Shown: positions 11,335 through 35,224 of the stretch, one piece after another | Layout: each line of letters opens with the position of its first letter | Numbering within the stretch: position 1 is the stretch's first letter | Assembly (NCBI GenBank): GCA_049322255.1 | Contig: JBMORE010000167.1 | Location: 1 to 64,000 of the forward strand | Source of the DNA: Myxococcota bacterium | GTDB lineage: Bacteria; Myxococcota; Myxococcia; Myxococcales; Myxococcaceae | Reading direction: 5' to 3' | Length of the DNA stretch: 64,000 bases | The notes under the pieces: generated by a model | Seen by the model: only the letters and a program-made list of their open reading frames with translations | What the model was told of the DNA's origin: nothing | The model's database searches: none | Position numbers and translations under genes: made by a program

Positions 11335-11345
11335 GCCACGTCACG

Positions 11346-13745: not shown

Positions 13746-13928
13746 ACGCGAGGGAAAAATTTTCGCCTGTTGGCTTCGATTCCGTTCTTTTTTGCAGCTT
13801 CCGACCGCGTGCCTCCCTGAGCTCGCTTGTACTTCGGGCCGGCACGCTTCCTGAAAATATGGTGTGCCGGCTTCCGGCGGTGCCCGGGACGACGTCGTTG
13901 GCCATTCGACACTCTCGGAGCGCAAAGG

Positions 13929-15197: not shown

Positions 15198-16348
15198 GGA
15201 ACGTGTTCGTCGCGTTTCTTGGGGCGCTCCTGGTGGCGGCGATGGGTTCTCAATGCCAGAGAGCTCCTGCGGCCACCGCCGCTGCGAGCGATGTACACGG
15301 CGCCCACGGGCCGTCGAAGTCCATGGACACGCCGATGCCAGCCGATGCCGGCCCGGTGGGCTACGCCCCCGTTTCGATTGCCCCGGACCAAGCAGTGGCC
15401 ATGCGGCTGGCGACGACTCCGGTCGAGCAGCGCGACTTCGTCAAAACCCTGCGCACGGTGGGCATCATCGCGCTGGACGAGACGCGGACCGCGCACGTGC
15501 ACTCGAAGGTGCGCGGCTGGATTGACGGCATCCACGTCGACTTCGTCGGCCGCGCGGTGCGATCCGGAGAGGTCCTCTGCTCCTTCTACAGCCAAGACGT
15601 CTATTCGGCCGAAGTGGAGCTCGTCTCTCTTCTGGCCACAGCTTCAGCGGAGCAAGACGTGCTGTTGGAAGCGGCGCGAAGGCGGCTGGCGCTCTGGGAT
15701 GTGCCAAAGAGCGAAATCGCCAGGCTCGAACGAACACGAGAGCCCCGCAGAACCTTTCCTCTCCTGGCGCCGGTTGCGGGTGTCGTGGTGGCAAAACAGG
15801 CGCTCGACGGAATGTTCGTCGACCCTTCCGTCGAGCTGTACACCCTCTCCGACCTTTCGCGCGTCTGGGTGCTGGTCGATGTCTACGAGGCGGATGTTCC
15901 CCACGTCCGTCTGGGAGACAAGGTTCTCCTGAGGGTTGAAGGGCAGAAATCATCGGTGGAGGCACGGGTGTCCTTCTTGCCCCCGACGCTCGACGAGGCC
16001 ACTCGAACGCGGAAAGTTCGACTCGACCTCGCCAACCCGGAGCACCGGTTTCTTCCGGGCGCCTTCGTCAACGCCCAAATGGAAGTGCCGATGGGGAGCG
16101 GGCTGGCGATTCCCGAGAGCGCGGTCATCCGCACGGGGACTCGCGCCATTGTCTTTGTCGCTCATGGCGAGCAAGGCCTGCACCTCGAGCCGCGAGAAGT
16201 GACGCTCGGGCCGCTCGTGGCCGACCACTACCGCGTGGACGAGGGGCTCTCCGCCGGCGAGCGCGTGGCGACGGGCGCGCAGTTCCTCATCGATTCAGAG
16301 AGTCGTCTGCGCGCCACGAGCGAGGGGGAAGGCGTTCATGGCCACTGA
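15194..16348 (+). CDS. cusB: Heavy-metal RND periplasmic adaptor (CusB-like)
   Basis: GWID..VDFVG, APVAGVV, DLSRVWV..DVYE, GLSAGERVATGAQFLIDSES; ATGA overlap with the upstream gene. Confidence 0.9.
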   Translation: MRNVFVAFLGALLVAAMGSQCQRAPAATAAASDVHGAHGPSKSMDTPMPADAGPVGYAPVSIAPDQAVAMRLATTPVEQRDFVKTLRTVGIIALDETRTAHVHSKVRGWIDGIHVDFVGRAVRSGEVLCSFYSQDVYSAEVELVSLLATASAEQDVLLEAARRRLALWDVPKSEIARLERTREPRRTFPLLAPVAGVVVAKQALDGMFVDPSVELYTLSDLSRVWVLVDVYEADVPHVRLGDKVLLRVEGQKSSVEARVSFLPPTLDEATRTRKVRLDLANPEHRFLPGAFVNAQMEVPMGSGLAIPESAVIRTGTRAIVFVAHGEQGLHLEPREVTLGPLVADHYRVDEGLSAGERVATGAQFLIDSESRLRATSEGEGVHGH

Positions 16349-19300
16349 AGGCCCCATCGCCAAAGTGATCGACTTCTCCTCGAGGAAGCGCTTCATGGTG
16401 TTTCTGGCCGTCGCCGGCCTCGCCGCCTGGGGAGCGTGGAGCGCTCAGAATGCCCAGCTCGACGCCCTTCCCGACCTCTCGGACACGCAAGTCATCGTCG
16501 CCACCGAGTGGATGGGGCGAAACCCCACGCTCATCGAGAACCAAGTCACCTATCCCATCGTCACCACCTTCTTGGGAGCGCCCAACATCAAGACGGTGCG
16601 TGGCTTCACGATGTTCGGGATGTCCTTCGTGTACATCATCTTCGAAGACGGCACCGACCTCTACTGGGCGCGTTCGCGGGTCATCGAATACCTCGCCAAG
16701 GTGCAGGGCCAGCTCCCCGAGGGAGTGACGCCCCAAATCGGCCCCGATGCGACGAGCGTGGGCTGGGTTTTTCAGTACGCCCTGGTGGACGAGGGCGGAG
16801 AGCAGAACCTGCAAACACTCCGTGCTTTCCAAGACTGGTCGCTTCGCTACTGGCTGCAGAGCGTCGAGGGTGTGGCCGAGGTCGCCAGCGTGGGCGGCTT
16901 CGAAAAGGAGTACCAAATTCAAGTCGACCCGGTGCGCATGAAGGCGCTCAACATCTCGGTGGGGCAAATCGCCGCTGCGGTGAGAGGCGCCAACGTCGAG
17001 GTGGGCGGACGGGTCGTCGAGATGTCGCAGCACGAGTACGCGCTGCGTGGCCGCGGATACGTCACCGACAAGAAGCACCTGGAATTGGCGGTCGTCGCGA
17101 CCGATTCACGGGGAACTCCGATTCGCATCCGCGACGCTGCCGACGTGACGGTGGGCGGGAACATCCGGCGCGGGCTGGTGGACCTGGATGGCCAAGGCGA
17201 AGTGGTGGGCGGAATCGTGGTGATGCGCGCGGGCGAGAACGCGCTCAAGGTCATTTCGCGGGTGAAAGCCAAGCTCGAGGAGGTCAAAGACGCACTGCCC
17301 CAAGGCGTGAAAATCGTGCCGGTGTACGACCGGAGTCAGCTCATCAAGGACTCGGTCTCGACGCTCACCACCAACCTTTTGCAGATTCTCGCCATCATCA
17401 TCCTCGTCATTTCCGTCTTCTTGTTCCATTTTCGCTCCGCCATCGTGGCGGCGATTACGCTCCCGGCGGCGACGGCAGCGACCTTCGTCACGTTCTATTA
17501 CCTGGACATCACCATCAACATCATGTCCCTGGCCGGAGTCATTCTGGCGCTCGGGGACATGGTGGATTCGGCGTGCGTGCTGGTGGAAAACGCGCACAAG
17601 AAAATTGCGGAAGCGCAGCGCACGGGAAGCAAGGTCGAGCGGAAAGAGTTGGTCATCGCCTCCGCGCGCGAGCTGGGGCCGTCGATGTTTGGCGCCTTGC
17701 TCGTGCTGACCATCGCCTTTCTGCCAGTGTTCGCGCTTGAGGGAGAAGAGGGGCGTCTCTTCCGTCCTCTGGCGCTCGCCAAGACGTTCTCGATGGCGTT
17801 CGCGTCTGTCTTCGCGGTGACGCTGGTGCCGGCGCTGATGGTCACGTTTCTCAAGGGCAAAATCACCCCGGAAGAGAAGAACCCCGTCAACCGGGCCTGC
17901 ATGGCGGCGTACCGGCCTGTCCTCAGCGCGTGTTTGAAGGGGCGCTATTTCCTCATCGTGCTGGTTCTTGCCGTGTTGGCGCTGACGGCTGTTCCCTTCT
18001 TGCGTCTGGGCTCTGAGTTCATGCCTCCGCTTTTTGAGGAAGATTTGCTCTACATGCCCATCACCGTGCCCGGCATCTCGGTGGCAGAGGCGAAACGTCT
18101 GCTCACGTGGCAGGACCGACAGATTCGCCAGGTGCCGGAGGTGGAGCTCGTTTTTGGAAAGACGGGGCGGGCGGAGACATCTCTCGACCCGGCTCCGCTG
18201 TCGATGTTCGAAACCATCGTTCGCCTCAAACCCAAGGATCAGTGGCGCGAGGGAATGACGGTCGAGCGCGTCATCGCCGAGCTCGACGAACGCACCAAGC
18301 TGCCGGGTGTGCAGGGCGCATGGACGATGCCCATCAAGGCGCGCATCGACATGCTTTCGACCGGCATTCGCACGCCCATCGGCATCAAGGTGTTCGGGCA
18401 AGACCTCGAGATCATCACTCGAATCAACGACCAGCTGGAGCGAAGCCTGCGCATGCTTCCCCATACGCGCAGCGTGTATGCCGAGCGCGAGCTGGGCGGC
18501 TTTTTCCTCGACGTCACGCCCGACCGCGAGGCCATCGCCAGGTACGGGCTGACCGTGCGTGAGGTGCTCGATGTCGTCGAGAGCACCATCGGCGGCATGG
18601 ATGTCACCACCACCTACGAGGGGCGAGAGCGCTACCGCGCGAACGTGCGCTACCCTCGCGAGCTGCGCGACGACCTCGAGGCACTGCGAAACGTTTGGGT
18701 GCCCATTTCTCCCCTGTCTCCGCGGCCGCTCCCTGCCGGGCCGCTCGCGTCTGCGTCGACCATGAGCGCGGCGACGCCCACTGCCCAGGCGATGGGTGCA
18801 GGTGCGATGGCGCAGCTCGGCGGCGGAGGAATGGGGGCGGGAATGTCTTCGCCCGCTGCTCCGATGGCGGGCCCCAGCATGGCCGGCGGAATGGGGAGCC
18901 AGAGCATGGGCGCGGGCGGAACAGCTGCTCCGAGCCTGCCGGTCGCGTCAGGCGTCACCGCTTCCTTCGTGACGTTGGGTCAGCTGGCGCGCATCGAGAC
19001 GGTAATGGGGCCTCCGATGATCAAGAGCGAGATGGGTTTGCTCTCCGGGTGGATTTACGTCGACATCGACACCGACGACGTCGGCGGCTACGTAGCGGCG
19101 GCCAAGGAGATGGTGGAACGGGAGGTGAAGATTCCGCCGGGGTACTTCCTCAAGTGGACTGGGCAGTACGAATTCCTGGAGCGCGTTCGCGAGAGGCTGA
19201 CGTGGATTCTTCCGCTCACCCTCGGAATCGTCTTCTTCATTCTCTACACCAATTTCAAGGGCGTCGCCCAAACGCTGATCGTCATGACGGGTGTGCCCTT

Positions 19301-19751
19301 CGCCGCCGTCGGCGCCATCTGGACGCTCTGGTTGATGCGCTTCAACACCTCCATCGCCGTATGGGTGGGGATGATTGCCCTCCTGGGGGTCGCCGCCGAG
19401 ACCGCCAGCGTGATGGTCGTCTACCTCGACGACGCCTGGAACGAGGGGCGCTCCAACGGGTCGATTCGGACGGTGTCGAGACTTGTCGATGCATCGTTCG
19501 AGGCCGCGACCAAACGTGTCCGGCCGATGCTGATGACAGTGATGAGCAACGTCTTCGGACTGCTCCCCATCCTGCTCGACAGGGGGGTCGGCTCCGACGT
19601 TGCCAAGCGCATTGCGGCGCCGATGTGGGGAGGCCTCGTGTCGCTGACCGTCCTCACCCTCCTGGTCGTTCCAGCGGTCTACGTCGTCTGGCGCAGCTTC
19701 CAGCTTCGCCGAGAAGAACAACCTTCGAGCGGTGGGCCACCTGAGCTATAG
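16338..19751 (+). CDS. cusA: CusA/SilA-type Cu(I)/Ag(I) RND efflux permease
   Basis: LDALPDLSDTQVIV, GPDATSVGWVFQY; three Met at positions matching the CusA metal site (LLYMP, PLSMFET, IDMLSTG); KRIAAPM. Confidence 0.95.
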   Translation: MATEGPIAKVIDFSSRKRFMVFLAVAGLAAWGAWSAQNAQLDALPDLSDTQVIVATEWMGRNPTLIENQVTYPIVTTFLGAPNIKTVRGFTMFGMSFVYIIFEDGTDLYWARSRVIEYLAKVQGQLPEGVTPQIGPDATSVGWVFQYALVDEGGEQNLQTLRAFQDWSLRYWLQSVEGVAEVASVGGFEKEYQIQVDPVRMKALNISVGQIAAAVRGANVEVGGRVVEMSQHEYALRGRGYVTDKKHLELAVVATDSRGTPIRIRDAADVTVGGNIRRGLVDLDGQGEVVGGIVVMRAGENALKVISRVKAKLEEVKDALPQGVKIVPVYDRSQLIKDSVSTLTTNLLQILAIIILVISVFLFHFRSAIVAAITLPAATAATFVTFYYLDITINIMSLAGVILALGDMVDSACVLVENAHKKIAEAQRTGSKVERKELVIASARELGPSMFGALLVLTIAFLPVFALEGEEGRLFRPLALAKTFSMAFASVFAVTLVPALMVTFLKGKITPEEKNPVNRACMAAYRPVLSACLKGRYFLIVLVLAVLALTAVPFLRLGSEFMPPLFEEDLLYMPITVPGISVAEAKRLLTWQDRQIRQVPEVELVFGKTGRAETSLDPAPLSMFETIVRLKPKDQWREGMTVERVIAELDERTKLPGVQGAWTMPIKARIDMLSTGIRTPIGIKVFGQDLEIITRINDQLERSLRMLPHTRSVYAERELGGFFLDVTPDREAIARYGLTVREVLDVVESTIGGMDVTTTYEGRERYRANVRYPRELRDDLEALRNVWVPISPLSPRPLPAGPLASASTMSAATPTAQAMGAGAMAQLGGGGMGAGMSSPAAPMAGPSMAGGMGSQSMGAGGTAAPSLPVASGVTASFVTLGQLARIETVMGPPMIKSEMGLLSGWIYVDIDTDDVGGYVAAAKEMVEREVKIPPGYFLKWTGQYEFLERVRERLTWILPLTLGIVFFILYTNFKGVAQTLIVMTGVPFAAVGAIWTLWLMRFNTSIAVWVGMIALLGVAAETASVMVVYLDDAWNEGRSNGSIRTVSRLVDASFEAATKRVRPMLMTVMSNVFGLLPILLDRGVGSDVAKRIAAPMWGGLVSLTVLTLLVVPAVYVVWRSFQLRREEQPSSGGPPEL

Positions 19752-21912: not shown

Positions 21913-22722
21913 TCACTTCGAAAACACCGCGTTGATGACGGCGACGGCTTTCTTGACCGCCAGAGCCATCTGGGCAGAAGCATCGGGCGCATCTTTGGCA
22001 GGCTGTAAGTCCTGACCGATGGTGAGCGCGTCTCCGAGCTTCTTGCCGGCAAACTGCCCGAGGAACGGGGGCGCCTCGATGGTTTTGGTGGACGGGTTCT
22101 TGAGAACGCGGACGCCGCTCACCGTGCCTCGCGTGTCCATCGCGACAGCAATGGAGATGGGCCCCTGGGGCGACTCGGCCGACACGAACTGCGCCACTGC
22201 GAAGCGTTTGCCCCCCTTGAGCGCGAAGTAGAAGGTGGGAACCTTGTCTTCATCGGTGAGGGTGACTCCCCGCTGCTCGACGCGGGTGACCTGCTCGGGC
22301 TTGAGCGTTCCTTCGATGGCCGCGAACGCGTCGGCGCTTGGGAACAGCGGGCGGAGCTGCTCCTCCGGGATGAAGGCCTTCTCCGCCTCGGCGAGCCAGT
22401 CGCCAATCGTGGCTGGTGTGCTCCGGTCGTCGCCGGCATTCGAGCGCTTGGTTATCTCTTCGAGGTTCGCGATGCGGTCCCCGTCGGAATCCTTCTGCTC
22501 GATTCTCGCGAAGGCCGGCAGGTTGGCGCCCGCTCGGAGGTAGTCGCGCCCATAGTCGTTGATGGCCGAGCCACCGCCAGCGCTATGGCAGAGGCTGCAG
22601 CTGATGCGATAGCCGTACTTGGCTTGGTACAAGCGCGAGTACGCAGGGAGCGCCGCTGCAGGCAACGACACGAGCGCGAGAGCGCAGAAGGTGACGGCCT
22701 GAAAGAGGCGCGTCGCGGACAT
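21913..22722 (-). CDS. Exported monoheme c-type cytochrome domain fused to an FMN_bind-like domain
   Basis: Signal peptide; ALPAYSR..CSLCH..NDYGRDY; DSDGD Ca-binding-like motif; C-terminal half paralogous to 22722-23270. Confidence 0.8.
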   Translation of the reverse strand: MSATRLFQAVTFCALALVSLPAAALPAYSRLYQAKYGYRISCSLCHSAGGGSAINDYGRDYLRAGANLPAFARIEQKDSDGDRIANLEEITKRSNAGDDRSTPATIGDWLAEAEKAFIPEEQLRPLFPSADAFAAIEGTLKPEQVTRVEQRGVTLTDEDKVPTFYFALKGGKRFAVAQFVSAESPQGPISIAVAMDTRGTVSGVRVLKNPSTKTIEAPPFLGQFAGKKLGDALTIGQDLQPAKDAPDASAQMALAVKKAVAVINAVFSK

Positions 22723-23270
22723 CACTTCGTCCCCAGTCGAAGTCCCGCCATTGCGATGAGCAGGGCGCGCCGCACACCGGTCGCCAATGCCTGCGCCGAC
22801 TTCTCAGCGCCAGCGGGAGCCTTCACGTCCTCCCCGACTCGGAAGGGGTCCGCTGCCTTCTTGCCCTCGAGCTTGGAAAGAAACTCCTTGGATGCCACCG
22901 AGCTCGGCTCGCTGTGCTCGTAGAGCACCACGCGCTGCACGGCGGCTGCTGGCGTCATGGCAACGCCCATCTCGACCTCGCCGTTCTCTCCGGCGACATC
23001 GAGAAAGAAAACGACACCCATGGTCCGTCCATCGGAGCCGGTCCCGATATAGAAGGTAGGGTTTTTGTCCTCGGTTCCGATGCGGCTACCGAGAGTCTTC
23101 TCAATCCATTCGATTTGCGCTGTTCCGAGGACGACCTGCTTTTGCGTGAACTTTTTTGCCTCGGGCATGGCCTCGGCGAGGCGCTTGCCGGGCCACGAAC
23201 GTTGGTGCGCTTCGGCCAGGGCGGGAGCGAGCCCGAGGGTGAGTACCAACCATGCAGTGAGTGCTTTCAT
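22722..23270 (-). CDS. Exported FMN_bind-like domain protein lacking the [ST]GA[ST] motif
   Basis: GGGAGG SD, ATG 23270, signal peptide; layout G..GEVEMGVAM..V..VV.YEHSE..EFLSKLEGKK resembles FMN_bind proteins. Confidence 0.75.
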   Translation of the reverse strand: MKALTAWLVLTLGLAPALAEAHQRSWPGKRLAEAMPEAKKFTQKQVVLGTAQIEWIEKTLGSRIGTEDKNPTFYIGTGSDGRTMGVVFFLDVAGENGEVEMGVAMTPAAAVQRVVLYEHSEPSSVASKEFLSKLEGKKAADPFRVGEDVKAPAGAEKSAQALATGVRRALLIAMAGLRLGTK

Positions 23271-23287
23271 CGAGCTTCCTCCCGTCT

Positions 23288-24574
23288 TCAGAACGCCATC
23301 AAAATTTGACTGCCTGCAACCCAGGCGACGTCCTCGCCGACGACGAGCCGTTGGTTCCCCTGGAAAAACACGCGCAGCCAGGATTCGTCCGTCAGGTTGT
23401 AGGTCATCGCCGCGCCCATCGCGCCGATGCGGGGCGTGTCCGGTCGCCCGTCGGTGAACCAGTCGTACTGCAGCTGTGCCGTGAGTTTCTGTGGCCGAAT
23501 CGTCCAGTCGGTGCGGAAGTACCAAGCCTGAACGACGAAGGTCTGACCTTCGTCGCGGTCTTTGCCAATCGTGTACTCCCCCGAGAACTTGAGCTTGCGG
23601 TAGTTCCATCTTCCGTCGAGCGAAACACGTTCTTTTCGGATGATTCGGTGCTGTTCATAGAACCCGCCGAACAGCATGGCGTCACCCGCTTGGAACCCAT
23701 CCGCTGCGAGCACCGGGTAGGCATCGCCATAAAAGCCAGACAGGCCCCAATTGGGCAGGTTGCCTTTGAAGTCGGTGCCCAGGCGCACGTAGAACGGGTG
23801 AAAGGACGAGTCCTGCGGCGTCTTCACCGTCGCGGCGATTTGCCCATCCAGACCCACCACGTCGCGAAGGACAAAGTCCGGCCCCATCGCCACCGCGCCG
23901 ACGAGCTCGATTGGCCCTAAGAATCCGGCGACCTCGATGGCTCGGTCGGACAGAATACCGATGGTCCGGTATTCGGTTGTCCGCAGAGGGTTCGCGGGTG
24001 CGTCGAGCTTGGCGTCGACCCCGTAACGAAGGCGCATTCGCCCTATGCGGAACGCCATTCCGTCGGCGAGCCACGGGAGGTTGGAGAACGTCGCGTAGAC
24101 GAAGCCATGGTCCTGACCAACAACGGTGCCGACGTCGCTGGTCAAGAGGAGCTGCTCGGCGAGGATAGAAATGTAGTCGCCGATGTTCGTGGTGAAGAAC
24201 AGCTCGTTGACGTGAATCATGTACATCCCCGAGGGCATCTCCTTGGGGAAGAGGAAGCGGTAGTCGAGCGTCCCGCCGAAGACGAGGCTGCCAGTGCCTC
24301 CCGTCCCGCCCGCAGCGGAGGGCGCTGGCGGAGCTCCCAACTCAGGCTGGTCAAGCTGAAGCCCGCCCTGCTGTTCGTCCGACGGAGGGGGCGGCTCGAG
24401 CGTCGTCTCTTTCGGAGGAGGCTCGGGAGTTGGCGTTTGGGCCATGAGCCAACGCTGAAGCGGGCCTGGACGAAAGAAGCGTTCGAAATAGCCGCGGTCC
24501 GGTGTTTCGGCGCGGACCACCGCGGGCGCAACAGATACAGCGAGCGCAACGGCGACGATCACGGAAGGCCGCAT
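23288..24574 (-). CDS. Outer-membrane beta-barrel (porin O/P-like) with Pro-rich N-terminal linker
   Basis: Signal peptide; amphipathic strands (FRIGRMRLRYG, SLDGRWNY, FSGEY, AQLQYDWF); terminal Phe; TGATG coupling to the upstream gene. Confidence 0.8.
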   Translation of the reverse strand: MRPSVIVAVALAVSVAPAVVRAETPDRGYFERFFRPGPLQRWLMAQTPTPEPPPKETTLEPPPPSDEQQGGLQLDQPELGAPPAPSAAGGTGGTGSLVFGGTLDYRFLFPKEMPSGMYMIHVNELFFTTNIGDYISILAEQLLLTSDVGTVVGQDHGFVYATFSNLPWLADGMAFRIGRMRLRYGVDAKLDAPANPLRTTEYRTIGILSDRAIEVAGFLGPIELVGAVAMGPDFVLRDVVGLDGQIAATVKTPQDSSFHPFYVRLGTDFKGNLPNWGLSGFYGDAYPVLAADGFQAGDAMLFGGFYEQHRIIRKERVSLDGRWNYRKLKFSGEYTIGKDRDEGQTFVVQAWYFRTDWTIRPQKLTAQLQYDWFTDGRPDTPRIGAMGAAMTYNLTDESWLRVFFQGNQRLVVGEDVAWVAGSQILMAF

Positions 24575-25278
24575 CAAGGCCCACCCCTTCCCAGCCACAT
24601 GTCCCGAAGGAGCGCGAGAGCCATCACGGCGAAGCCAAGCGAGAAGAACACGCCGGTCGCGATGGACAGGAGCTCGAATCCGGCACCTGCGTATTTCGTG
24701 AGCCACCACGAACCGATGTCGCCGATGACTCCAACGAGTGCCAGGGTCACGATTGCGCTGGAGAAAGCGGACGTGCGACGGCTCAACCCGTAGGCAAGTC
24801 CCGTCAAACCCTCCATCGTCGCGATGCCCATCAGGTGGGCATGGGAGAGCGCGCTCAGGCGTGCAGGCTTGAGGTAGCGGAAGTACTCCTCCGTCGAGGA
24901 ATAGACGACGCGCGTGTCCAGGTAGACAGTGACGGCGGCGACCAGGTGCGCTGCAGCGAACACCGCCACCGTGAGCGTCAACGCGAGCTTGGCTGGCAAG
25001 GGCCAGTTGCCGAGGTGCAGAGGAGGCTCTCCCTTGCCGTCAGCGCGTTTCCCGGCGAGCGCTGCCGCTCCCACGGCAGCAAGGAGGAGAGCCACCGAAC
25101 CCGCGGCCCAGATTTTCGATGCACTCGTCTTGGCCACTTGCTGAACGGACTCAGGAGGAATCTCCGTTTCTTCGAGGTTCAGGCCGCCCTCTTCCTGGTC
25201 GGCACCTGCCGTCTGCGCTGCCGTTGGACCGGCAGCCAGGAACGCCACAGTGGCCAGGAGTCCAAACCGCACCCGCAT
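24574..25278 (-). CDS. Inner-membrane protein, ~5 TM after a signal-like leader, with SHAHLMG motif
   Basis: Hydrophobic segments; membrane-proximal His (AAHLV, SHAHL); DIGSWWLTK. Confidence 0.8.
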   Translation of the reverse strand: MRVRFGLLATVAFLAAGPTAAQTAGADQEEGGLNLEETEIPPESVQQVAKTSASKIWAAGSVALLLAAVGAAALAGKRADGKGEPPLHLGNWPLPAKLALTLTVAVFAAAHLVAAVTVYLDTRVVYSSTEEYFRYLKPARLSALSHAHLMGIATMEGLTGLAYGLSRRTSAFSSAIVTLALVGVIGDIGSWWLTKYAGAGFELLSIATGVFFSLGFAVMALALLRDMWLGRGGP

Positions 25279-25280
25279 GT

Positions 25281-26432
25281 TTAGAACTCCCAGTCGAGCT
25301 GAAACATCACCTGTCGCTCGTACTGCCGCGCTGTCGTCAGCGGGAACTGGACGCCGAGGCCCACGGTGGCAGCAGAGCTCCCCAGGCCGATCTTCACGGC
25401 GGGCAAAAGGTAGATCGTGGTGTGCTCAGGACTGAATTCCCCGCGGTTCTCGACCAAGGCGTAGATGCGCCCCGCTGGACGGAACTGCAGGGCAGCCTCG
25501 TAGGAAACCTCGACTTCGGAAGCCGTGGGCGAGACGTGCACGTTCGCATCGAGAAGGACGCGGTTGGCCCAGCCCACCGCGCCGGAGACGCCGGCGCCTC
25601 CGCGCACCGACGGTCCATCTCCACGCACCGTTGGCCACGAGACTTCGCCAAAAATCGAAATCCCCTGGGAACCGTCCGCATTTTGGAAAATGGCGAACTG
25701 AAGCATCAGCTCGCTGCCGTGGTCCTCCGCTGCCTCGTCGGCCGTTCCAGCTCCGGCATTGGTGATCGCATCGTTTCGCAGGTGCAGGCCCAGACGGGGC
25801 AGGATGCCTGCCTCAACGTGAAAGGCGGCGTCGTTCCCCGCGCCCAGCTCGCCCGCCCGGCGAATGCCGGTCACGCGAACGCTTGCGCCACCCGGAGGGT
25901 CGGGCATGCCCATGTGGGCGAGGAAGGGATGCGTCATCATCACGGCCTCCGCCTCGGCCACAGGTGGTTGCTGACGAGAGATGGACAGCGGGAAGTCCAC
26001 GGACACCGGCGAGGAGTCTGGAAGGGCGACTGACGCGACGACGAGGTATTCGCCCGCCGGCGGTGGCTTGAAGTGCGCGCCGAAGACACCAGCCTCCGCT
26101 TCGGAGTGGGCTGGTGTGGGCGGCGCCACGTCACCACCATTGAGGGTGAGCTTCAGCGTGACAGCAGCCTCGGGGACCGGGACATGGCTGCCAAGAACTG
26201 GATCGGGTGGTTCGATGTGCCGTTCGATTTTGACCTCGATCTCCAGCTCCTCCGCCCCTTGGGTGGCACTGCCCGAGAGGCGAAGCTGTCCGGCGTTCTT
26301 GGTCCCAAGCGCCACGGTGGGCGCCGCTCCCGCTTCGGCCTTCGGCATCTTCTTCCCGTGGGCCAAGGCAACGGAGGGTCCAAAGGACAACCCCGCTATC
26401 AACAGCACCGGTCCAATTCTTGAGTGCTCCAC
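25281..26432 (-). CDS. Exported protein: YtkA/FixH-like Ig domain + His/Met motif + C-terminal beta-barrel
   Basis: GAGGAGG SD before GTG 26432; signal peptide ending ALA-H; GVFGAHFKPPPAGEYLV; MMTHPFLAHMGMPD; ends QLDWEF. Confidence 0.78.
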   Translation of the reverse strand: MEHSRIGPVLLIAGLSFGPSVALAHGKKMPKAEAGAAPTVALGTKNAGQLRLSGSATQGAEELEIEVKIERHIEPPDPVLGSHVPVPEAAVTLKLTLNGGDVAPPTPAHSEAEAGVFGAHFKPPPAGEYLVVASVALPDSSPVSVDFPLSISRQQPPVAEAEAVMMTHPFLAHMGMPDPPGGASVRVTGIRRAGELGAGNDAAFHVEAGILPRLGLHLRNDAITNAGAGTADEAAEDHGSELMLQFAIFQNADGSQGISIFGEVSWPTVRGDGPSVRGGAGVSGAVGWANRVLLDANVHVSPTASEVEVSYEAALQFRPAGRIYALVENRGEFSPEHTTIYLLPAVKIGLGSSAATVGLGVQFPLTTARQYERQVMFQLDWEF

Positions 26433-26466
26433 GACATCCTCCTCGAACAAGTTGGCAGCACTCGTG

Positions 26467-26482
26467 AGCAATAGGGGTGCCA
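26467..26482 (-). promoter_or_regulatory. Sigma-54 (-24/-12) promoter for the 26432->21913 operon
   Basis: Minus strand reads TGGCAC-CCCTA-TTGCT, matching TGGCAC-N5-TTGCW, 34 nt upstream of the GTG start. Confidence 0.8.
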
Positions 26483-26625: not shown

Positions 26626-29600
26626 TCAGTACTCCTTGCTCCAGTAAAGGTCGGCGCCGCCCACCGGCGCGTCGCCCCACGCGGCCTCGAGGTACCAGCG
26701 GCGCGAGAGCTGGTACTGCAGAATGACCTCGTTGACGTTCTCCAAGCGCACCGTGGGAGGGCGTGCACCCAGCTCGGTGCGAAAGCCGACATAGGCGCGG
26801 GTGCCCACGTAGGTGCCGGCCTCCAGACGGGTGCCGGTGCCCTCCCCGGTGGGCTCGATGAAGAGCACGTCCAGCGGCACCGCCTGAGCGAGCGCATTGC
26901 GCAGCTGCGTGGCGGCGAGCGAGCCCAAGACCGAAGCGGCCACGGTGGGTCCGGTGGTCGAGCCTCCCGTGCCTGGCCGCAGGGTACGGCGGCCGGTGGC
27001 GAGCAGGGTGTAAATCTCCGTCTCCGGCAGGGGCGGTTCCGAGGTGGGAGTGATGGAAAGCTCCTTCGCTCTTCCGGTGAGCGAGATGTACACGGTGACT
27101 CCCGTGGTGGCGCTGGCGTGGCTGGCGGTGACGTTCAGCTCGGGGTTGGCCGAAGGGCCGGTGAAGCGGACGAAGGAGTCCTCCTCCAGCTCGAACCTCC
27201 GTCCCAGCACTTCCACTCGTCCCTGCAGCACCCTCACCGTGCCGAAGACTTGTGTTTGCCTGCCCACCTCGACTCGGAAATTTTCGGAGAGGCCGAGCTC
27301 CACGTTCACGTCGTTGCTCTCGATCCACACGTTGCGCGGAGCGTTGACGAAGGCGCGTAGCTGGAGAGCCTTCGGGCGCTCGTTCGCCTGGGTGTCGGTT
27401 TCCCCCGCGCCACCGATGCCCCGCCGCTCGCTGGGCCCGTTCACCGGCACGCCGTCACGGACGAAGACGATGTCCTCGGGCTCGTCCAACGCCTGCAAGT
27501 CCCGGCGCCGGACGTCAGGCAATTTCAAGTGGGCCTCCTCTACGCTCAAAGGGGTGAGGCTCACCAGGCCTGGCCGCAGAGCGCCCGTGGCTTTCGCCCG
27601 CGCGGAGAGCACGACGACGAGCTGGTCGTTGGAGACGATGGGAAAGTCGTCGAGCCGGGTCTTCAGGGTGAGGGCGTACGCCGGCCCTTGGCGGGAGGCG
27701 GAGCCAGTGAGGGTGGCTTCGCCGCCGCCGGCGCGCACGAACAGCCGGCTCACCTCGATTCCCTTCTCGTCACCAGAGAGCCGCAGTTGAATGTCGCGGT
27801 ATTCGCCATGGCGCTCCAACGCCAGCCGCCCGTCGAGGAGGGTGAGCATGCCCTGTACGTCGGGCGCACCCAGAGGCCCACGCACCTTCACCCCCGCGCG
27901 CACGATGCCGCCGACATCGAGCAGGGGTGGTGCCACGCCGGAGAGAAAGGAGAGCTGGAAATCGTTGGCGCTCAGCGAAGCATCTACCGGCGCGCTGGCC
28001 CAATCGAGCCCGCGCCGCAGGGCAGGGTAGGAGACATCGAGAATGAGCGCGCCGAAAAGCCGCAGCTGGCCGCCGTTGGAACGCAGGGTTGCGTCGACCT
28101 GGTGCCGAGTGTTGGCGTAGCGGTAGTCGAGCGCGATGTCGCCGGCTGAGAGCCCTCCCTGTTGGCCCAGCCCGTCGACCGAAGCGGTGAGGGCGATGCG
28201 CGGAGCGACCAGGCTGCCGTTCGCCGTCAGCTGCCCCGCGGCGATGCCCACGAAGGGGAGCAACTCTTCCTTCGAGTCTCTCCGCGCTCGAAAGAGCGAG
28301 CGCACCTCGACGAGAGACACCGGGCCGAGCTCCGCCTCGAGCTGAAGCTGGGTTTCGGTCAGACGCTCGTCGAAAAAGAGAGCGCCCAAGGGATGGGCCA
28401 GCTTCCCGTGAGCTTTCAGCAGGGAGCGTTCCCCCCGCAGTGCGTGTGCGGCGAGCGACAGCTCGTTCGGTTTGGCGTCGAGGTCAGCGCGCAACATCAA
28501 GGGCGGCTCGGTGTCCAGGCCCCGCTGCTCCACTTGAAGGGATGCGCTCCCCAGCGGAGAAAGCAACGAGCCCTGGAGTGTTGCCTGGGCGCTGGCACGC
28601 GGTGTGGCACCGGGTGTGCCCAGCGGCAAGGCGAAGGAGCGCACGTCGAGCCAGAGCGCCAACGGCGTTCGCAACACCTGCTGGCGCGAGGGAGGCTTTT
28701 GGAAGAGTTGGCGCAGCGTCCAGGGGGTCTCCAGGCGCGCCTGGCTGTCGCTTCCATCCTGTCTCGCGGTGACGCGCGCCCAAAGCCGTCCGTGCTCGTC
28801 GCTCTGCACCCAAAGAGAGGCATCCGCCGCCGGTAGCTCGCGGTAGCGCAATGAGCGCGCCTGCATGGAGAGCTCGAGCAAGGGAGCGCGCGCGGTGCCG
28901 TGCAGGCGCAACTGGCCAAAGACGCTTCCGCTGAGCGGTGCTTCGACGCCCAGGCTCTCCATGGCCGTTTGCAAAGAGAGCTCGCTCACCTCCACCTGGG
29001 CGTGCACCCAGCCGCCGGTGCCCGTGCGCAGTCCCTCCACGGGCAGGTCGAGGTCGGCGCTCAACGCCAGCCCCATGCCTGCGAAGCCGAGGGCTCCGGT
29101 GAAGCGGTCTTCGGCGTACCGGCCGTTGAGCGAGAGGTCGACGTCGCGATAGGTGCGGAAGCCGGCGTCGTACAGCGCAAGGTGGATGCGCGCGGCGGGG
29201 CGAGGCAGCGTGCCGTGTACTTCGAGGCGCGCCTCGAGCTTCCCAGCGAGGTTCCAAGGAGGGAGGAAGGCGTGGGGCAAAAGGTCCAAGCGCAGACGCT
29301 TCGCATGGAGCGTGGCGTCGAGGCGTGACCCGCGCCAAGTCCCGTCCACGGCCAGCATCTGCGCACCGGAGCGCAGGCGAAAACTCCCTCTCCCTGCGGG
29401 AGAGGGGAGGGGTGAGGGGCGATTGTCTTCAACGCGTACCCGTGCCGGAGCCCCCAGTTGCCAGCGCGCCTGTGGGTAGCTCAAGGCGAGGCGATGGAGC
29501 GTCAGCCCACGCAGGTCAGGGTCGAGCTGGCCGCGGGCGGCGAGTGCGAGGCGGGCCACGCCTCCGGTGGAGGCATCGAAGCGCAGCCGGCGGTCGGCGA

Positions 29601-31146
29601 CTGTCCACTCCGACCGTAAGCCGTGAAAGCGCCGGTCAGCCACCTCGAGCTCGTCTGCCTCGATGCGCGCCTGACTGTCCAGCGGCTGGGTGACGTCGGC
29701 GAAGCGTGCGAAGAGGGAGAGCTTGCGTGCCGAAACCTGGTCGAAGGCGATGGTGCCGAATTGGCCGCGAACGACGAGCGCGGGGCGCTCGGGCACTCCT
29801 GTTGCTTCGAGGGAAAGCTGCCCCTCGCCCGACAGCGGAAGTCCTTTCGGGCGTACGAGCTTGCCGAAAGTGGCTCCCAAGTCGGCAAGCGCCTCGGCCG
29901 TCACCTGCGCAGAAAGCTGCACCCGCTCCTTGGAGAGGCTGCCCGACGCCTGCACCCGCACTCCCGGCAAGCGGGCGAAGAGCTCTCGGAGGCGGAAGGT
30001 GCCGCTCTCCGCCGTGGCCGAAAGGCGCACCGGCCCGAAGGGAAGCCCGCCCACGGAGGAAGGGGGCGCCTTGAGCACCAGAGAGCCGGTGGCCTCGGAG
30101 AGACGGCGGCCTCCACCTTCGGCGCGCAAAGAGAAGGCGAGGTTCGAGCGGGGCCCGTCGTCGAGCCACTCAGAAAGGTCGATGTGGCGTGCTTCGACGG
30201 CCAGGGGCATGGCGATGCGCTGGTGGAGGTCGAGCGTACCTTTGACCGTGACATGGCCCGAAGCGGCGGTGGCGCCGAGGTCGACTGTCGCCTGCCCACC
30301 GCGTCTTTCCATCGCGCCGCGCAGCTCCACCGGCTGCACCAGCGGGTAGGGGGAAAAGAGGCTGCGCGCCAGCGTCGGCGATACCACCAGCGGGTCGAGC
30401 TGTACCCGTAAGTACCCGTCAGGGCGAATGGCCGCAGTGGCCTTCAGCGTCGAGCCGGCCGCGGACATGTCGACGTCGGCGAAATAACCCTCCTTCGTCT
30501 TGCGGGTGCGCGCCTCCAGCGTCACCTTTTCTCGGGGCGGCTCGGCAAGCTGTGCGTGCAGCGTCACCCGGCTGGTCATCGCTTCGCCGCCGTCGACGAG
30601 CTCGAATTCCCCTTGGGCGGAGATGTCCTCGAGTCGTGCTTCTCGTCCGCCTTCGTTCAGTTGAAAGACGAGCTGTCCCTCCGCCACAAAAAAGCGTTCG
30701 ACGGAGAGGTGGAGCCCGCCGCGCCGACGGTCATTCGTTTTCTCGCGCTTGCGCGAAGGTTTCAGCGCGCGCGTCAGGTTGAGCCCACGCTCGGCAGGGT
30801 GCAGGTGGAAGCGCGGCCGGAACACCTTCACCTCCGTCAGCTCGATGCGCCGTCGAAAGAGGGGAAGGAGGGCGACGCGGGTGAAGACGCGCTCGATCTC
30901 CGCCACCCGCTCGCCCTCGCTCGTGCGCAAGGCGACCCCGTGCACCACCACTCGCCCCAAGGACAGGTCGAGCTTCTCGACCTCCAGCGTGCCAGAGAGC
31001 GCTCTGTTGGCCCGGGTCAACAGCTCCATGCGCACGCGCTCGCTGCCGGCGTCGGAGCTCAGGTAGGCGAGCGCTCCCGCCACAAGGAGCGCGACCAGCC
31101 CGAGCACCGCCAGCACCACCCACCCCAACCGCTTGAGCCAGCGCAC
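26626..31146 (-). CDS. tamB: Translocation and assembly module TamB (AsmA-like, DUF490 C-terminus)
   Basis: 1506 aa, N-terminal TM anchor, beta-taco repeats, C-terminal FTG..NPELNV..SEPPLPETEIYTLLATG; directly follows an Omp85 gene. Confidence 0.9.
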   Translation of the reverse strand: MRWLKRLGWVVLAVLGLVALLVAGALAYLSSDAGSERVRMELLTRANRALSGTLEVEKLDLSLGRVVVHGVALRTSEGERVAEIERVFTRVALLPLFRRRIELTEVKVFRPRFHLHPAERGLNLTRALKPSRKREKTNDRRRGGLHLSVERFFVAEGQLVFQLNEGGREARLEDISAQGEFELVDGGEAMTSRVTLHAQLAEPPREKVTLEARTRKTKEGYFADVDMSAAGSTLKATAAIRPDGYLRVQLDPLVVSPTLARSLFSPYPLVQPVELRGAMERRGGQATVDLGATAASGHVTVKGTLDLHQRIAMPLAVEARHIDLSEWLDDGPRSNLAFSLRAEGGGRRLSEATGSLVLKAPPSSVGGLPFGPVRLSATAESGTFRLRELFARLPGVRVQASGSLSKERVQLSAQVTAEALADLGATFGKLVRPKGLPLSGEGQLSLEATGVPERPALVVRGQFGTIAFDQVSARKLSLFARFADVTQPLDSQARIEADELEVADRRFHGLRSEWTVADRRLRFDASTGGVARLALAARGQLDPDLRGLTLHRLALSYPQARWQLGAPARVRVEDNRPSPLPSPAGRGSFRLRSGAQMLAVDGTWRGSRLDATLHAKRLRLDLLPHAFLPPWNLAGKLEARLEVHGTLPRPAARIHLALYDAGFRTYRDVDLSLNGRYAEDRFTGALGFAGMGLALSADLDLPVEGLRTGTGGWVHAQVEVSELSLQTAMESLGVEAPLSGSVFGQLRLHGTARAPLLELSMQARSLRYRELPAADASLWVQSDEHGRLWARVTARQDGSDSQARLETPWTLRQLFQKPPSRQQVLRTPLALWLDVRSFALPLGTPGATPRASAQATLQGSLLSPLGSASLQVEQRGLDTEPPLMLRADLDAKPNELSLAAHALRGERSLLKAHGKLAHPLGALFFDERLTETQLQLEAELGPVSLVEVRSLFRARRDSKEELLPFVGIAAGQLTANGSLVAPRIALTASVDGLGQQGGLSAGDIALDYRYANTRHQVDATLRSNGGQLRLFGALILDVSYPALRRGLDWASAPVDASLSANDFQLSFLSGVAPPLLDVGGIVRAGVKVRGPLGAPDVQGMLTLLDGRLALERHGEYRDIQLRLSGDEKGIEVSRLFVRAGGGEATLTGSASRQGPAYALTLKTRLDDFPIVSNDQLVVVLSARAKATGALRPGLVSLTPLSVEEAHLKLPDVRRRDLQALDEPEDIVFVRDGVPVNGPSERRGIGGAGETDTQANERPKALQLRAFVNAPRNVWIESNDVNVELGLSENFRVEVGRQTQVFGTVRVLQGRVEVLGRRFELEEDSFVRFTGPSANPELNVTASHASATTGVTVYISLTGRAKELSITPTSEPPLPETEIYTLLATGRRTLRPGTGGSTTGPTVAASVLGSLAATQLRNALAQAVPLDVLFIEPTGEGTGTRLEAGTYVGTRAYVGFRTELGARPPTVRLENVNEVILQYQLSRRWYLEAAWGDAPVGGADLYWSKEY
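29386..29419 (+). repeat. REP-like palindromic element, copy 2 (in frame inside tamB, antisense to the gene)
   Basis: CCCTCTCCC-TGC-GGGAGAGGG-GA-GGGGTGAGGGG; reads PSPLPSPAGRG in TamB. Confidence 0.85.
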
Positions 31147-33198
31147 TTAGAAGGCCTCACCGATGGAGAGGTGGAGCGCGCAGGGGCTCTCGGGGGCGCC
31201 GGCGGCGTCGGGGTTTCCCTCGCCGATGCCGAAGCAGCCGGTGGCGCGGTCGAAGGAGAGCGGCCCGTCGGGAGAGGGAATGAGGGGCAGCGGACGCCCG
31301 GGAGAGGGGAGCCGGTAGGCCAAGTCGAGCCGCACCGGCCCCACCGGAGTCAGGTAGCGAAGGCCCACCCCCACCGCCACCATGAGGTTTTGGCGGAAGT
31401 AGTCGAAGTCGGGCTGGAGCCGCTCGATGGTGACGAAGCCGGTGTCGACGAAGGTAGCCCCAACGAATTTCTCGGTGAAGCGGTAGCGCGCCTCCAGCGA
31501 GCCTTCGAACAATCCATTGCCGCCGATGGGCACCGGCTCGCCCTCGAAGTCCGACTCCCCGTTGGAGCGGGCCACCACCTGCTGCGGCGCCAGGCGACGG
31601 GTGCCGAAGCCGCGCATCTCGTTCCCTCCGGAGGCGAAGCGGGCGACGATGGCGCTCTCGATGTCCGCGCCGGTGGAGGGGATGAGTGTTCCCAACCGGG
31701 TGCGTACCGCCAAGGTGAGTCGCTCACCATCGAGGAAAGAGAAGTAGGCCCGCGCTTCGGGAGCGATGCGCAGGTAGCCGAAGTCGCCTCCCAACGGACC
31801 TCCGCCTTCTTGAAGGGAGAGGGCGAGGAGCATCCCCCGCTTGGGAGCCAGCGGGTCATCACGCAAATCGAGCGTCACCAACTGCTCGAGGAACGACACC
31901 AAGCAGTCACGCGTGCAGCCGAAGCGCAAAGCCGGGGTGTCCCCAGCGATGAACTGGCCGGAGGTGAGGCGGAAGATTTGAAAATTGTAGGCGGGAAAGA
32001 GCGCGAAATAGGTGTACGGCTGCCACACCACCCCGGTGCGTGCGCGGATGATGTAGAAGCCATAGCCCGGCTCGGCGCCTTTCTCGAGCTCCAGCCGGTT
32101 GCTTTGGCGGAAGTTGGGGTGGAACAGCCGCGGGTGGTCGACGTCGGCGGTGAGCCGCGCCACCGGCTCGCTGCGGTTCACCGTGTCGCCGGGGCCAATC
32201 GCCTCGAAGACGCTGGGGATGAAGGCCCACCCGGCGAGCGCGTTGAGATTGAGCCGCCGAAGTCCTCCCAAAAAGTCGCGGTGGGTGTACTCGCCAACCA
32301 GGTGGGCGTCGTGCCGGGTGGGTTCGATGCCGATGCCAAAGCCGGCGCGCACGGAGTGAAAGGGCGCCTCCTGCACCTCCACCACCAGGGGTACGGTGCC
32401 CTTCTCCGGCGAAGGCGGGCCGAGGTTCACCCGCGCGGCCCCGAACACCCCCATGCGAAACACGCGCGCTTGCGCCTCCTCGCGCGCTGACTCCGAATAC
32501 CAAGCCTCGTGCTCGATGGCCTCGCGTGCCTGCTCGGCGATGCGCCACGCCTCCACCCGTGCGCCAGGGGCCTGCACCACTCGAATCTCACCGAAGCGGT
32601 AACGCTGGTTGGGCTCGATGCCCACGTCGATGCGCGCCCGCCGGGTGGCGAGGTCGACCGTCGCCTGCCCGGAGACTTTCGCTTCCACGTAACCCAGCTC
32701 GAGAAGCTCGTCGCGCAGCCCTCCCTTGAGCGCCTCCCAGCGCTCCTCGAGGAAGACGTCGCCTGGCGTCAGTTCCACCAGGCCGAGCAGCTCCCGGCGT
32801 TGCTCGAGGGGGAGCGCTTCGACGCCTTCGATGTTCCTCTCGGAGAGCAGGGTGGGCTCGCCCTCCTGCACCCGTACCACCAGCCGCACCTGGTTCGTCC
32901 CCTCAGGGATGATGTCGTCGCTCACCACCTTCGCCTGGTAGAAACCGCGCTCCCGGTAGTAGCGCTCGATGCGCCGCAGGTCGGTGCGCCAGACGTTGCG
33001 ATCGAAGTACTGCGGCTTGGCGAAGGGCAGCCAGCTCGTCTGTTGGGTGGCAATCTTGTTCTTGATGTCTTGCGCATCGATTTGCTGGGCACCGAGAACG
33101 TCGAGCTCGACCACCTCGGGCAAGTCGGGTCGTTCGGCGTCGTGCGCGCAGCCGACCAGCGCGGCGCCCAGCACCAAGAGAGACAGTCGAGAGCTCAC
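31147..33198 (-). CDS. tamA: Omp85-family outer-membrane protein TamA (lipoprotein, POTRA + barrel)
   Basis: Lipobox LVGC; POTRA (YYRERGFYQAKV); GG..MRGF loop; GVGLRYLTPVGPVRLD; ends SIGEAF. Confidence 0.9.
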   Translation of the reverse strand: MSSRLSLLVLGAALVGCAHDAERPDLPEVVELDVLGAQQIDAQDIKNKIATQQTSWLPFAKPQYFDRNVWRTDLRRIERYYRERGFYQAKVVSDDIIPEGTNQVRLVVRVQEGEPTLLSERNIEGVEALPLEQRRELLGLVELTPGDVFLEERWEALKGGLRDELLELGYVEAKVSGQATVDLATRRARIDVGIEPNQRYRFGEIRVVQAPGARVEAWRIAEQAREAIEHEAWYSESAREEAQARVFRMGVFGAARVNLGPPSPEKGTVPLVVEVQEAPFHSVRAGFGIGIEPTRHDAHLVGEYTHRDFLGGLRRLNLNALAGWAFIPSVFEAIGPGDTVNRSEPVARLTADVDHPRLFHPNFRQSNRLELEKGAEPGYGFYIIRARTGVVWQPYTYFALFPAYNFQIFRLTSGQFIAGDTPALRFGCTRDCLVSFLEQLVTLDLRDDPLAPKRGMLLALSLQEGGGPLGGDFGYLRIAPEARAYFSFLDGERLTLAVRTRLGTLIPSTGADIESAIVARFASGGNEMRGFGTRRLAPQQVVARSNGESDFEGEPVPIGGNGLFEGSLEARYRFTEKFVGATFVDTGFVTIERLQPDFDYFRQNLMVAVGVGLRYLTPVGPVRLDLAYRLPSPGRPLPLIPSPDGPLSFDRATGCFGIGEGNPDAAGAPESPCALHLSIGEAF

Positions 33199-33293: not shown

Positions 33294-33614
33294 TCACGGA
33301 GCAAACATCTCTGCGAGCACCTCCAGCACGCGCGCGAAGGTCGACCTTTCTACTGAGCCGAGCCGCTTGACGAGTCTCGTTTGATTAACGGTACGGAGTT
33401 GGTCGAGCACGATGAGCCCGCGCTTGCGCTGGAAACTGATGGATACTCTCGATGGTAGAGGCCGCCCCTGAGTTGTCATCGGCGCTACGATGACCGTCCC
33501 AAGGTTCCGGTTCATTTCGTCCGGCGAAACGACCAAGCAAGGCCGCGTCTTCCGTATCTCATGTCCACGCGTCGGATCGAGCGAGACCAGGAACACGTCG
33601 CCACGGCCTACCAT
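33294..33614 (-). CDS. mazF: PemK/MazF-family mRNA interferase toxin
   Basis: RGDVFLVSLDPTRGHEIRKTRPCLVVSPD, DQLRTV..RL. Confidence 0.95.
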   Translation of the reverse strand: MVGRGDVFLVSLDPTRGHEIRKTRPCLVVSPDEMNRNLGTVIVAPMTTQGRPLPSRVSISFQRKRGLIVLDQLRTVNQTRLVKRLGSVERSTFARVLEVLAEMFAP

Positions 33615-33847
33615 TGCCAGTCGAGCTCATCGAAAGCGGTGGGAATCTCGCGGTCGAGCATTGCCTGGGGCCCGGCCTTCGCGAACGCCTTCGCCCAGCC
33701 CTCTCTTGGCGAGCGGGCGCGTCTAATGACGAGTGCGTCGCCAGCCACCTCAAGCTCGACCTCGCCTTCGAGCCGAAGCTGAGTCAGTAGAGACTTGGGG
33801 ACGCGAAGACCTTTGGAGTTACCGATTTGGATGATGTGCGCTCGCAT
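33608..33847 (-). CDS. mazE: AbrB/MazE-family antitoxin
   Basis: IGNSKGLRVPK; acidic C-terminus FDELDWQW; overlaps toxin start. Confidence 0.93.
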   Translation of the reverse strand: MRAHIIQIGNSKGLRVPKSLLTQLRLEGEVELEVAGDALVIRRARSPREGWAKAFAKAGPQAMLDREIPTAFDELDWQW

Positions 33848-34707: not shown

Positions 34708-34772
34708 GGGCTGCGAGCGAGCGCGGCCTCTATATTCGACCGCCGAAATCGGGTTTTCGACCGTTGCCGCCA

Positions 34773-35206: not shown

Positions 35207-35224
35207 CCAGCTCGCGCGCCCCTC

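Follow-up and report, generated by a model that had tools for sequence, protein, structure and literature searches.

A conserved five-gene envelope cluster in a Myxococcota genome with a possible link to copper handling

The stretch of DNA analysed here, hereafter the window, is 64 kb long (63–70 % G+C) and opens contig JBMORE010000167.1 of a 4.8-Mb Myxococcota metagenome-assembled genome (MAG) that is 99.6 % complete. Its minus strand carries a cluster of five open reading frames (ORFs), named G1 to G5 in the direction of transcription, which encode two predicted outer-membrane barrels (G1, G3), an inner-membrane protein (G2) and two proteins with a flavin-free NqrC/RnfG-like domain (G4, G5), the latter also bearing a heme-binding motif. 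The features are as follows.

21913–26432, minus strand: the five-gene cluster G1–G5
25281–26432, minus strand: G1, 383 aa; GTG start, with AGGAGG 7 nt upstream
24574–25278, minus strand: G2, 234 aa
23288–24574, minus strand: G3, 428 aa; ATG start, in-frame TTG at 24577
22722–23270, minus strand: G4, 182 aa
21913–22722, minus strand: G5, 269 aa; ATG start, in-frame GTG at 22725

Layout and conservation of the cluster

The five genes are tightly packed. Gaps of 2 nt and 17 nt separate G1 from G2 and G3 from G4, respectively, and the G2/G3 and G4/G5 junctions each consist of a TGATG overlap, so that the arrangement given in the initial annotation of this DNA is confirmed by the sequence. Two motifs singled out there, SHAHLMG in G2 (residues 145–151) and CSLCH in G5, were likewise located. 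Export signals were judged by eye from hydrophobic N-termini ending in A-x-A and, for G2, additionally by hydropathy.

A gene-neighbourhood search showed that the order G1-G2-G3-G4-G5 is kept in all five Myxococcota MAG loci found, to the extent that their DNA extends; these lie on one-genome-per-species contigs, on which L004, L006 and L008 are complete and L005 and L007 are cut. The proposal that the five genes form one conserved cluster is thus upheld, as their order recurs in related genomes. Searches of the fetched loci with hidden Markov models of each protein gave 17 distinct loci in which members of the G5 and G2 families occur together. The order (G1-)G2-G3-G4-G5 was found in seven (the window, L004, L006, L008, L041, L043 and L045), G5 was directly followed by G2 in nine (L030–L033, L049, L050, L051, L055 and L059), and the two genes were 1.9 kb apart in one (L034). 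The evolutionary core is the G5+G2 pair and not the five-gene unit, and G1 is limited to the Myxococcota five-gene version.

The cluster is rare. A relative of G2 was present in 3 of 41 relatives and in 20 of 401 Myxococcota genomes, with a close orthologue in a single one (G151). All named relatives are MAG proteins annotated as 'hypothetical protein' or 'porin', and no cultured organism is among them.

Predicted properties of the five envelope proteins

G4 and G5 had been described as FMN_bind-like. These matches are real, and the fold was confirmed for G5, but both scores (16.9 bits, E 0.01, for G4; 14.6 bits for G5) fall below the Pfam gathering cut-off of 22 bits. In the AlphaFold2 (AF2) model of G5, with a predicted local distance difference test score (pLDDT) of 89.5, the C-terminal domain matched NqrC/RnfG chains by Foldseek with E values of 8e-6 to 3e-4, and RnfG was superposed with an rmsd of 2.5 Å over 154 columns. 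Alignment showed that G4 is paralogous to this domain. In a HMMER alignment, the flavinylated Thr of RnfG (ITGATITS) corresponds to a non-conserved position in this family. The flavinylation motif [S/T]-G-A-[S/T] is replaced by AGAE in the window G4 and by DAPD in the window G5, and the SGAT place in 13 G4/G5 domains reads AGAE, SGDQ, ESAA, DDSK, SGAE, SDAI, KDAP and the like. Moreover, ApbE (PF02424) gave no match in the 99.6 %-complete genome, while the same search, run as a control on 14 reference genomes, detected it in 8. With the Thr absent and no ApbE found in the genome, the earlier notion of flavin-less FMN_bind domains is sustained and, judged from sequence, G4 and the C-terminal domain of G5 are flavin-free. 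Of four features of NqrC/RnfG flavoproteins, these periplasmic proteins share the fold and lack the other three.

The relationship to NqrC/RnfG (FMN_bind, PF04205) is accordingly one of common fold and of a similar position as periplasm-facing partners of a membrane protein. Apart from the missing Thr, the missing ApbE and the sub-cut-off scores, G4 and G5 differ by having cleavable signal peptides (read by eye) in place of the membrane anchor of NqrC/RnfG. Unlike in Na+-NQR and Rnf, the membrane partner G2 is unrelated to NqrB/D/E or RnfD/A/E, and G5 bears a heme motif. The ApbE-dependent extracytosolic flavinylation clusters surveyed by Meheust et al. (2021; PMC8238504) likewise combine FMN_bind-type periplasmic proteins with membrane proteins and barrels. 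They depend on ApbE and on the flavinylation motif, neither of which was found here, and a term search of the main text of that survey met neither 'copper' nor 'porin'.

An N-terminal His is a hallmark of histidine-brace copper sites, as in CopC. The predicted mature N-terminus of G4 is a His, with cleavage after AEA and before HQRSWPGKRL, and the pattern H-[QD]-[RK]-x-W-P-[GA]-K directly follows a small-x-small cleavage site in 9 of 10 distinct G4-bearing loci (L049 is the exception). Predicted mature G1 begins with H-G in five of six long G1 forms. For both proteins the cleavage sites were read by eye.

The N-terminal 85 residues of G5 contain a single CSLCH (residues 42–46; P0022) and an EF-hand/bacterial TSP3-like loop, DSDGD...N..E. 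C42, C45 and H46 are nearly invariant in 28 sequences, and no conserved distal Met or His heme ligand was found in the same set. This region partially matched the NCBIfam model diheme_GEGP (E 2e-14) and weakly Cytochrome_CBB3 (12.4 bits). Because the CxxCH is nearly invariant and Ccm-type cytochrome c maturation genes are present in the genome, covalent attachment of heme to G5 is plausible.

G2 is predicted to be an inner-membrane protein with a signal peptide and five transmembrane (TM) helices, an N-terminal TM helix followed by a four-helix bundle; loop charges agree with this topology, and the AF2 model has a pLDDT of 78.6. Its earlier portrayal as a protein of about five TM helices with SHAHLMG agrees with the predicted topology and the motif and needed correction in one respect, as precomputed annotation places G2 in PF27139 (Aq_1264_TM), a Pfam family that has a name but is uncharacterised. 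All 20 relatives found and the Atlas neighbours share this precomputed assignment. No function is described for PF27139, and a full-text literature search for aq_1264 returned nothing. Thirteen residues are invariant in 14 sequences (Y119, D121, R123, E131, Y132, H146, H148, M150, D187, W191, W192, K195 and E202), and in the model, oriented by loop charge, all of them would lie at the periplasmic face. Foldseek against the PDB gave nothing at E≤0.001, a profile search against PDB sequences gave nothing, the Atlas structure search returned the protein's own family only, and the VIA structure search returned generic four-helix bundles only, with Z≤8.5, which is under the meaningful level for helical bundles.

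G3 is predicted to be a porin-like outer-membrane barrel and ends in Phe. It has 79 relatives, two of them with a precomputed Porin_4 (PF13609) annotation, and the window G3 itself did not match that model. The relatives, some annotated as porin, include proteins from MAGs of Nitrospirota, Bdellovibrio-like bacteria and Pseudomonadota, and the family has 41 invariant columns. A profile search against PDB sequences yielded an adiponectin match only, which we rejected as spurious. Five metagenomic proteins of ~639 aa are natural G2-G3 fusions (P0119, P0124, P0125, P0128 and P0130). In the three that were read (P0119, P0124 and P0128), the G3 signal peptide has not been lost but forms a hydrophobic stretch inside the protein, behind the positively charged C-terminal end of G2, which makes the fusion topologically consistent. 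These fusions argue for a 1:1 functional pair, in which an alpha-helical inner-membrane domain and an outer-membrane barrel would be made as one polypeptide and presumably cut by signal peptidase.

The combination of a heme motif with a porin brings in a different explanation, which we regard as doubtful: a 'split Cyc2' electron conduit, in which G3 and the G5 heme domain would exchange electrons with Fe or another substrate, extracellular or periplasmic, and G2 would serve as the membrane end-point. Cyc2, an iron oxidase of neutrophilic and acidophilic Fe-oxidisers, has the signature AXPXFAR[Q/K][T/Y] about 5 residues before CXXCH, as given in PMC8406198. G5 likewise has its single CxxCH near the N-terminus after a PxF/Y-x-R motif, A-L-P-A-Y-S-R-L-Y ... 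CSLCH resembles the Cyc2 signature, and hhalign aligned the G5 heme domain with the N-termini of Cyc2-like proteins from L030 and L034 (probability 74 %, E 3e-5, 30 columns). The motif is related but does not fit, as ALPAYSRLY is displaced to 9 and not 3 to 5 residues before the Cys of CxxCH and has Y/S/L for F/A/[QK]. Cyc2 is furthermore a fusion with a 16-strand porin, of at least 365 aa, whereas G5 has 269 aa and no barrel, the porin G3 is encoded by a separate gene, and what accompanies the heme domain within G5 is an NqrC-like domain and an EF-hand-like loop. G3 is Cys-free and its profile match to Cyc2-like barrels was weak (hhalign probability 27 %), so that G3 as the barrel half of Cyc2 was rejected. 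G2 carries no heme or quinone-site signature, and its only conserved His residues are H146 and H148.

G1 comprises the predicted mature N-terminal His, an Ig-like domain (~residues 50–153), the motif HPFLAHMGMPD and a C-terminal barrel of ~220 aa ending in Phe. No Pfam or NCBIfam model matched it, and an exhaustive search collected 81 relatives at E≤0.001. The barrel part (residues 165–383) matches a family of ~240–270-aa proteins, in which H-P-F-x-x-H-x-G-x-P (H168, P169, F170, H173, G175, P177) is nearly invariant. The Ig-like part matches the N-termini of ~610-aa proteins, and HlyD_D23 (CusB-type adaptor) was detected in five of the five that were scanned; a profile search of this domain against PDB sequences gave nothing. 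In its Atlas model G1 is similar to outer-membrane barrels of the Phenol_MetA_deg, HAEPLYID and DUF3187 types, with TM scores of 0.62–0.79 when normalised by the matched cluster and 0.47–0.54 when normalised by the query. The barrel likeness and the HPFLAHMGMPD motif bear out the first view of G1 as an Ig-like, His/Met and barrel protein.

Immediately ahead of the cluster and transcribed in the same direction are genes for TamB (1506 aa) and a TamA/Omp85-POTRA protein (683 aa; 26626–33198, minus strand). An outer-membrane-protein assembly module thus adjoins the two barrel genes.

Promoter and neighbouring genes

A sigma-54-type promoter had been proposed upstream of G1, and the element is present and unique in the window.

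26468–26482 (26467 with the final T), minus strand: sigma-54-type −24/−12 element TGGCAC-N5-TTGCT, TGGCACCCCTATTGC, agreeing with 11 of 11 consensus positions

It ends 36 nt from the G1 start codon and is the sole TGGCAC-N5-TTGC match in 64 kb, where 0.06 were expected and 6 of 100 shuffles had one. A sigma-70-like promoter was sought inside the cluster and none was found. Among the related loci, L007 has TGGCACAACATCTGCT at −92 from G1, agreeing with the consensus at 10 of 11 positions, and L008 has a sigma-54-like site at −84 (9 of 11); the site in L004 is distant, and L006 has none within 300 nt. The genome of the window encodes RpoN. In L007 the genes immediately preceding G1 encode a histidine kinase and an NtrC-type sigma-54 activator, and another such pair comes after the cluster in L049. 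No cognate enhancer-binding protein was found among the window ORFs scanned, and ~29 paralogues are encoded elsewhere in the genome. In other lineages a CsoR-type repressor occupies the regulatory place. In Myxococcus xanthus, copper genes are reportedly under the NtrC-type regulator CorR. Sigma-54 control of the cluster is thus plausible on the strength of the unique site, the presence of RpoN and the activators flanking L007 and L049.

Downstream, the 3′ flank of the cluster is convergent and consists of an E1 dehydrogenase pair followed by a heavy-metal efflux operon of the resistance-nodulation-division (RND) class.

13827–19751, plus strand: CusCBA-type heavy-metal RND efflux operon (Pfam OEP, HlyD_D23, ACR_tran), given for context only

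This operon encodes an OEP protein, a CusB/CzcB-type adaptor and a CusA/CzcA pump, the last matching TIGR00914 with 1059 bits against a cut-off of 701. Its end is 2.2 kb from the G5 stop, in agreement with the proximity noted before. The P-type ATPase encoded beside it (11328–13745, plus strand) was considered as a copper pump and rejected, being PMR1/SERCA-like and thus of Ca type; it scored 608 bits against TIGR01522, under that model's cut-off of 798 bits.

Seven of the 17 loci have canonical copper genes as neighbours.

Window: CusCBA-type operon
L029 (= L008): multicopper oxidase, its start overlapping the G5 stop; CusA/CzcA pump
L006: multicopper oxidase; RND pump
L041: multicopper oxidase, CopB and YHS-type P-type ATPase
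L050: CsoR-type repressor, His-rich 168-aa exported protein, G5, G2 and YHS/HMBD ATPase, consecutively
L051: CsoR-type repressor
L055: YHS/HMBD ATPase

Further copper proteins are SCO1 in L034 and a cupredoxin in L032. Of the suggested link to a metal, Cu or Fe, it is copper that has stood, recurring in separate loci. Exported proteins of 160–200 aa with His-rich ends are encoded directly upstream of G5 in three loci (L050:8493–8999, L051:8522–9010 and L055:164–766), in L050 and L051 between the CsoR-type repressor and G5. They belong to no Pfam family, examples of their ends are PHSHH close to the N-terminus and a C-terminal HGHEGH, and they are likely periplasmic metal binders.

These neighbours would also suit a route of copper delivery or uptake for the maturation of cuproenzymes such as cytochrome oxidases and multicopper oxidases, instead of detoxification. 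N-terminal His sites occur in the copper-delivery protein CopC, SCO1/SenC adjoins the pair in L034, cupredoxins are found in L030 to L034, and the multicopper oxidase of L029 is seemingly co-operonic. The CsoR-type repressors and Cu-exporting ATPases of L050, L051 and L055, on the other hand, suggest induction under copper excess, and in a housekeeping maturation route it would be surprising to see any G2 relative confined to 20 of 401 Myxococcota genomes, so that we find this reading quite improbable.

Other surroundings are found in the paralogous Myxococcota loci L030 to L034, where genes for CheA-like kinases, cytochrome c peroxidases, small c-type cytochromes, Cyc2-like proteins and, by motif, cupredoxin-like proteins lie near the pair. 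Genes for Cyc2-like fused cytochrome-barrels adjoin G5-G2 pairs at L030:10745–11932, L034:10808–11998 (minus strand) and L049:7447–7783; the carriers are Myxococcota genomes and one metagenome contig. The barrels of L030 and L034 have an N-terminal CxxCH, and at the end of L049 is a Cyc2 with the exact published signature, AIPAFARKY...CVTCH...PKL. Kinases of ~850–885 aa with dCache/HAMP, Hpt and HATPase_c domains and without CheW are encoded at L030:11940–14597, L032:10505–13162 and L033:6374–8917, where they sit with G5-G2 pairs, small c-type cytochromes and cytochrome c peroxidases.

The adjacency of Cyc2-like genes in L030, L034 and L049, together with the small c-type cytochromes and cupredoxin-like proteins of those loci, speaks for the conduit considered above. 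Against it, the recurrent neighbours are CsoR-type repressors, Cu ATPases and multicopper oxidases and not iron genes, giving a context of copper where that of Cyc2 is iron.

The kinase genes raise the further idea of a periplasmic redox or metal sensor, in which a metal, gas or oxidant would be the ligand of an open heme or His site in G5 and G4, and its binding would be relayed by way of G2 to histidine kinases, the barrels providing access only. Consistent with this, G5-G2 pairs neighbour the CheA-like dCache/HAMP-Hpt-HATPase kinases of three loci (L030, L032 and L033) and, in L031, CheA/CheB/MCP genes, a histidine kinase and a sigma-54 response regulator are found beside the pair in L007 and L049, and the sixth heme ligand is not conserved in the 28 G5 sequences. 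G2, however, has no cytoplasmic signalling domain, its cytoplasmic loops being 4 to 15 residues long, and no kinase is near most loci, the window included. Translational coupling and the fusion with the porin gene better suit a transport or redox machine, and we see at most a slender chance for a sensor.

Elsewhere in the window we noted two likely toxin-antitoxin pairs, one with a MazF/PemK-like toxin (33294–33847, minus strand) and one with a PIN-domain protein (37533–38149, plus strand); the upstream ORFs that overlap these genes encode 79 and 77 aa, respectively. A full M64 (IgA-peptidase-like) metalloprotease gene follows a shorter ORF with the M64 N-terminal domain only (34563–35327 and 35973–37460, plus strand).

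A possible role in copper stress

The recurrence of the cluster in uncultured bacteria, often beside copper-resistance genes, makes an undescribed copper-handling envelope system likely. Weighing what was observed, namely the order of the genes, their conservation, the folds and motifs, and the copper genes found nearby, we favour a copper-stress envelope module that would use heme c and His ligands instead of flavin, a function read from genomic context to which we assign a probability of roughly 45 %.

In such a module, G5, with its CxxCH heme motif and flavin-free NqrC/RnfG-like domain, would be placed on the periplasmic face of G2, a five-helix anchor presenting there its invariant His-x-His/Asp/Glu/Trp cluster. 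Periplasmic copper, either entering or pumped in, would be bound by G4 with its predicted N-terminal His; alternative binders may be the His-rich parts of G1 or the His-rich protein of other lineages. The heme of G5 would change the redox state of the copper, probably by oxidation of Cu(I) without O2, and the barrels G1 (with the His/Met motif and the CusB-N-terminus-like Ig domain) and G3 (the porin) would allow passage across the outer membrane. Transcription would proceed from the sigma-54 promoter with an unlinked NtrC-type activator. The CsoR-controlled Cu-ATPase genes in a row with G5-G2 in L050 favour detoxification, that is, Cu(I) oxidation without O2.

Several observations weigh against a copper-stress module. 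The 17 loci are related and do not count as independent samples, and 8 of them have no recognised copper gene. The context of L030 to L034 is redox or sensory rather than copper, and in L044 to L046 the neighbours are TPR or thioredoxin genes. A V/A-type ATPase operon directly follows G5 at L043:9881–18294, L054:630–4941 and L057:752–2506, an adjacency that may be lineage synteny. At one locus (L038/L039), G3-G4-G5 are present and G2 is absent in 7.8 kb upstream. No fold or motif links G2 to a known copper protein, and none of the five proteins was matched by the CopB, CopC, CopD or CusF models of Pfam and NCBIfam. Among the sequencing runs screened for the stretch, one DNA run (possibly the source sample) and no RNA run contained it. 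Finally, which way copper redox or transport would run is guesswork.

As an analogy only, the parts of the cluster parallel those of Pco/Cop (PcoA, PcoB/CopB, PcoC/CopC, PcoD/CopD), with G1 as a His/Met barrel, G4 as a protein with a predicted N-terminal His, G2 as a His-bearing inner-membrane protein and G5 as the redox protein. Real multicopper oxidase and/or CopB genes flank the cluster in L041, L029 and L006. Unlike Pco/Cop proteins, those of the cluster did not match the CopB/PcoB (PF05275), CopC or CopD models at E≤1, whereas the true CopB of L041, run through the same tool, scored 252 bits; heme c would take the place of a multicopper site as redox centre, and there is an extra porin. 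That no named system has this composition agrees with our comparison, in which none matched; the papers listed for the combination of copper, FMN-binding, porin and CsoR were general copper papers only.

The copper-stress module can be drawn more specifically, in a form that we hold to be rather unlikely: a heme-c-driven, O2-independent periplasmic copper oxidoreductase or relay, built on a flavin-stripped NqrC/RnfG scaffold with a Cyc2-type heme domain, docked to an Aq_1264_TM protein, provided with its own outer-membrane channels and placed under CsoR or sigma-54 control. It would have spread through uncultured Myxococcota and Nitrospirota, with G3 homologues in Bdellovibrio-like and Pseudomonadota MAGs. 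Such a system would be a new kind of bacterial copper-resistance machine. Independently of this reading, the cluster can be seen as a variant of envelope metal-homeostasis operons assembled from uncharacterised parts, and it would be a new kind should the proposed chemistry of heme and copper hold true.

What is known of copper detoxification in the periplasm concerns mainly O2-dependent multicopper oxidases and pumps of the Cus type. For the question of how low-oxygen sediment and biofilm bacteria handle Cu(I), the cluster would offer a testable candidate, and it would give a first functional lead for the Pfam family PF27139. It may also serve as an example of the NqrC/RnfG fold reused without flavin, and the link to the Cyc2-type heme domain would bear on the evolution of metal-oxidising conduits.

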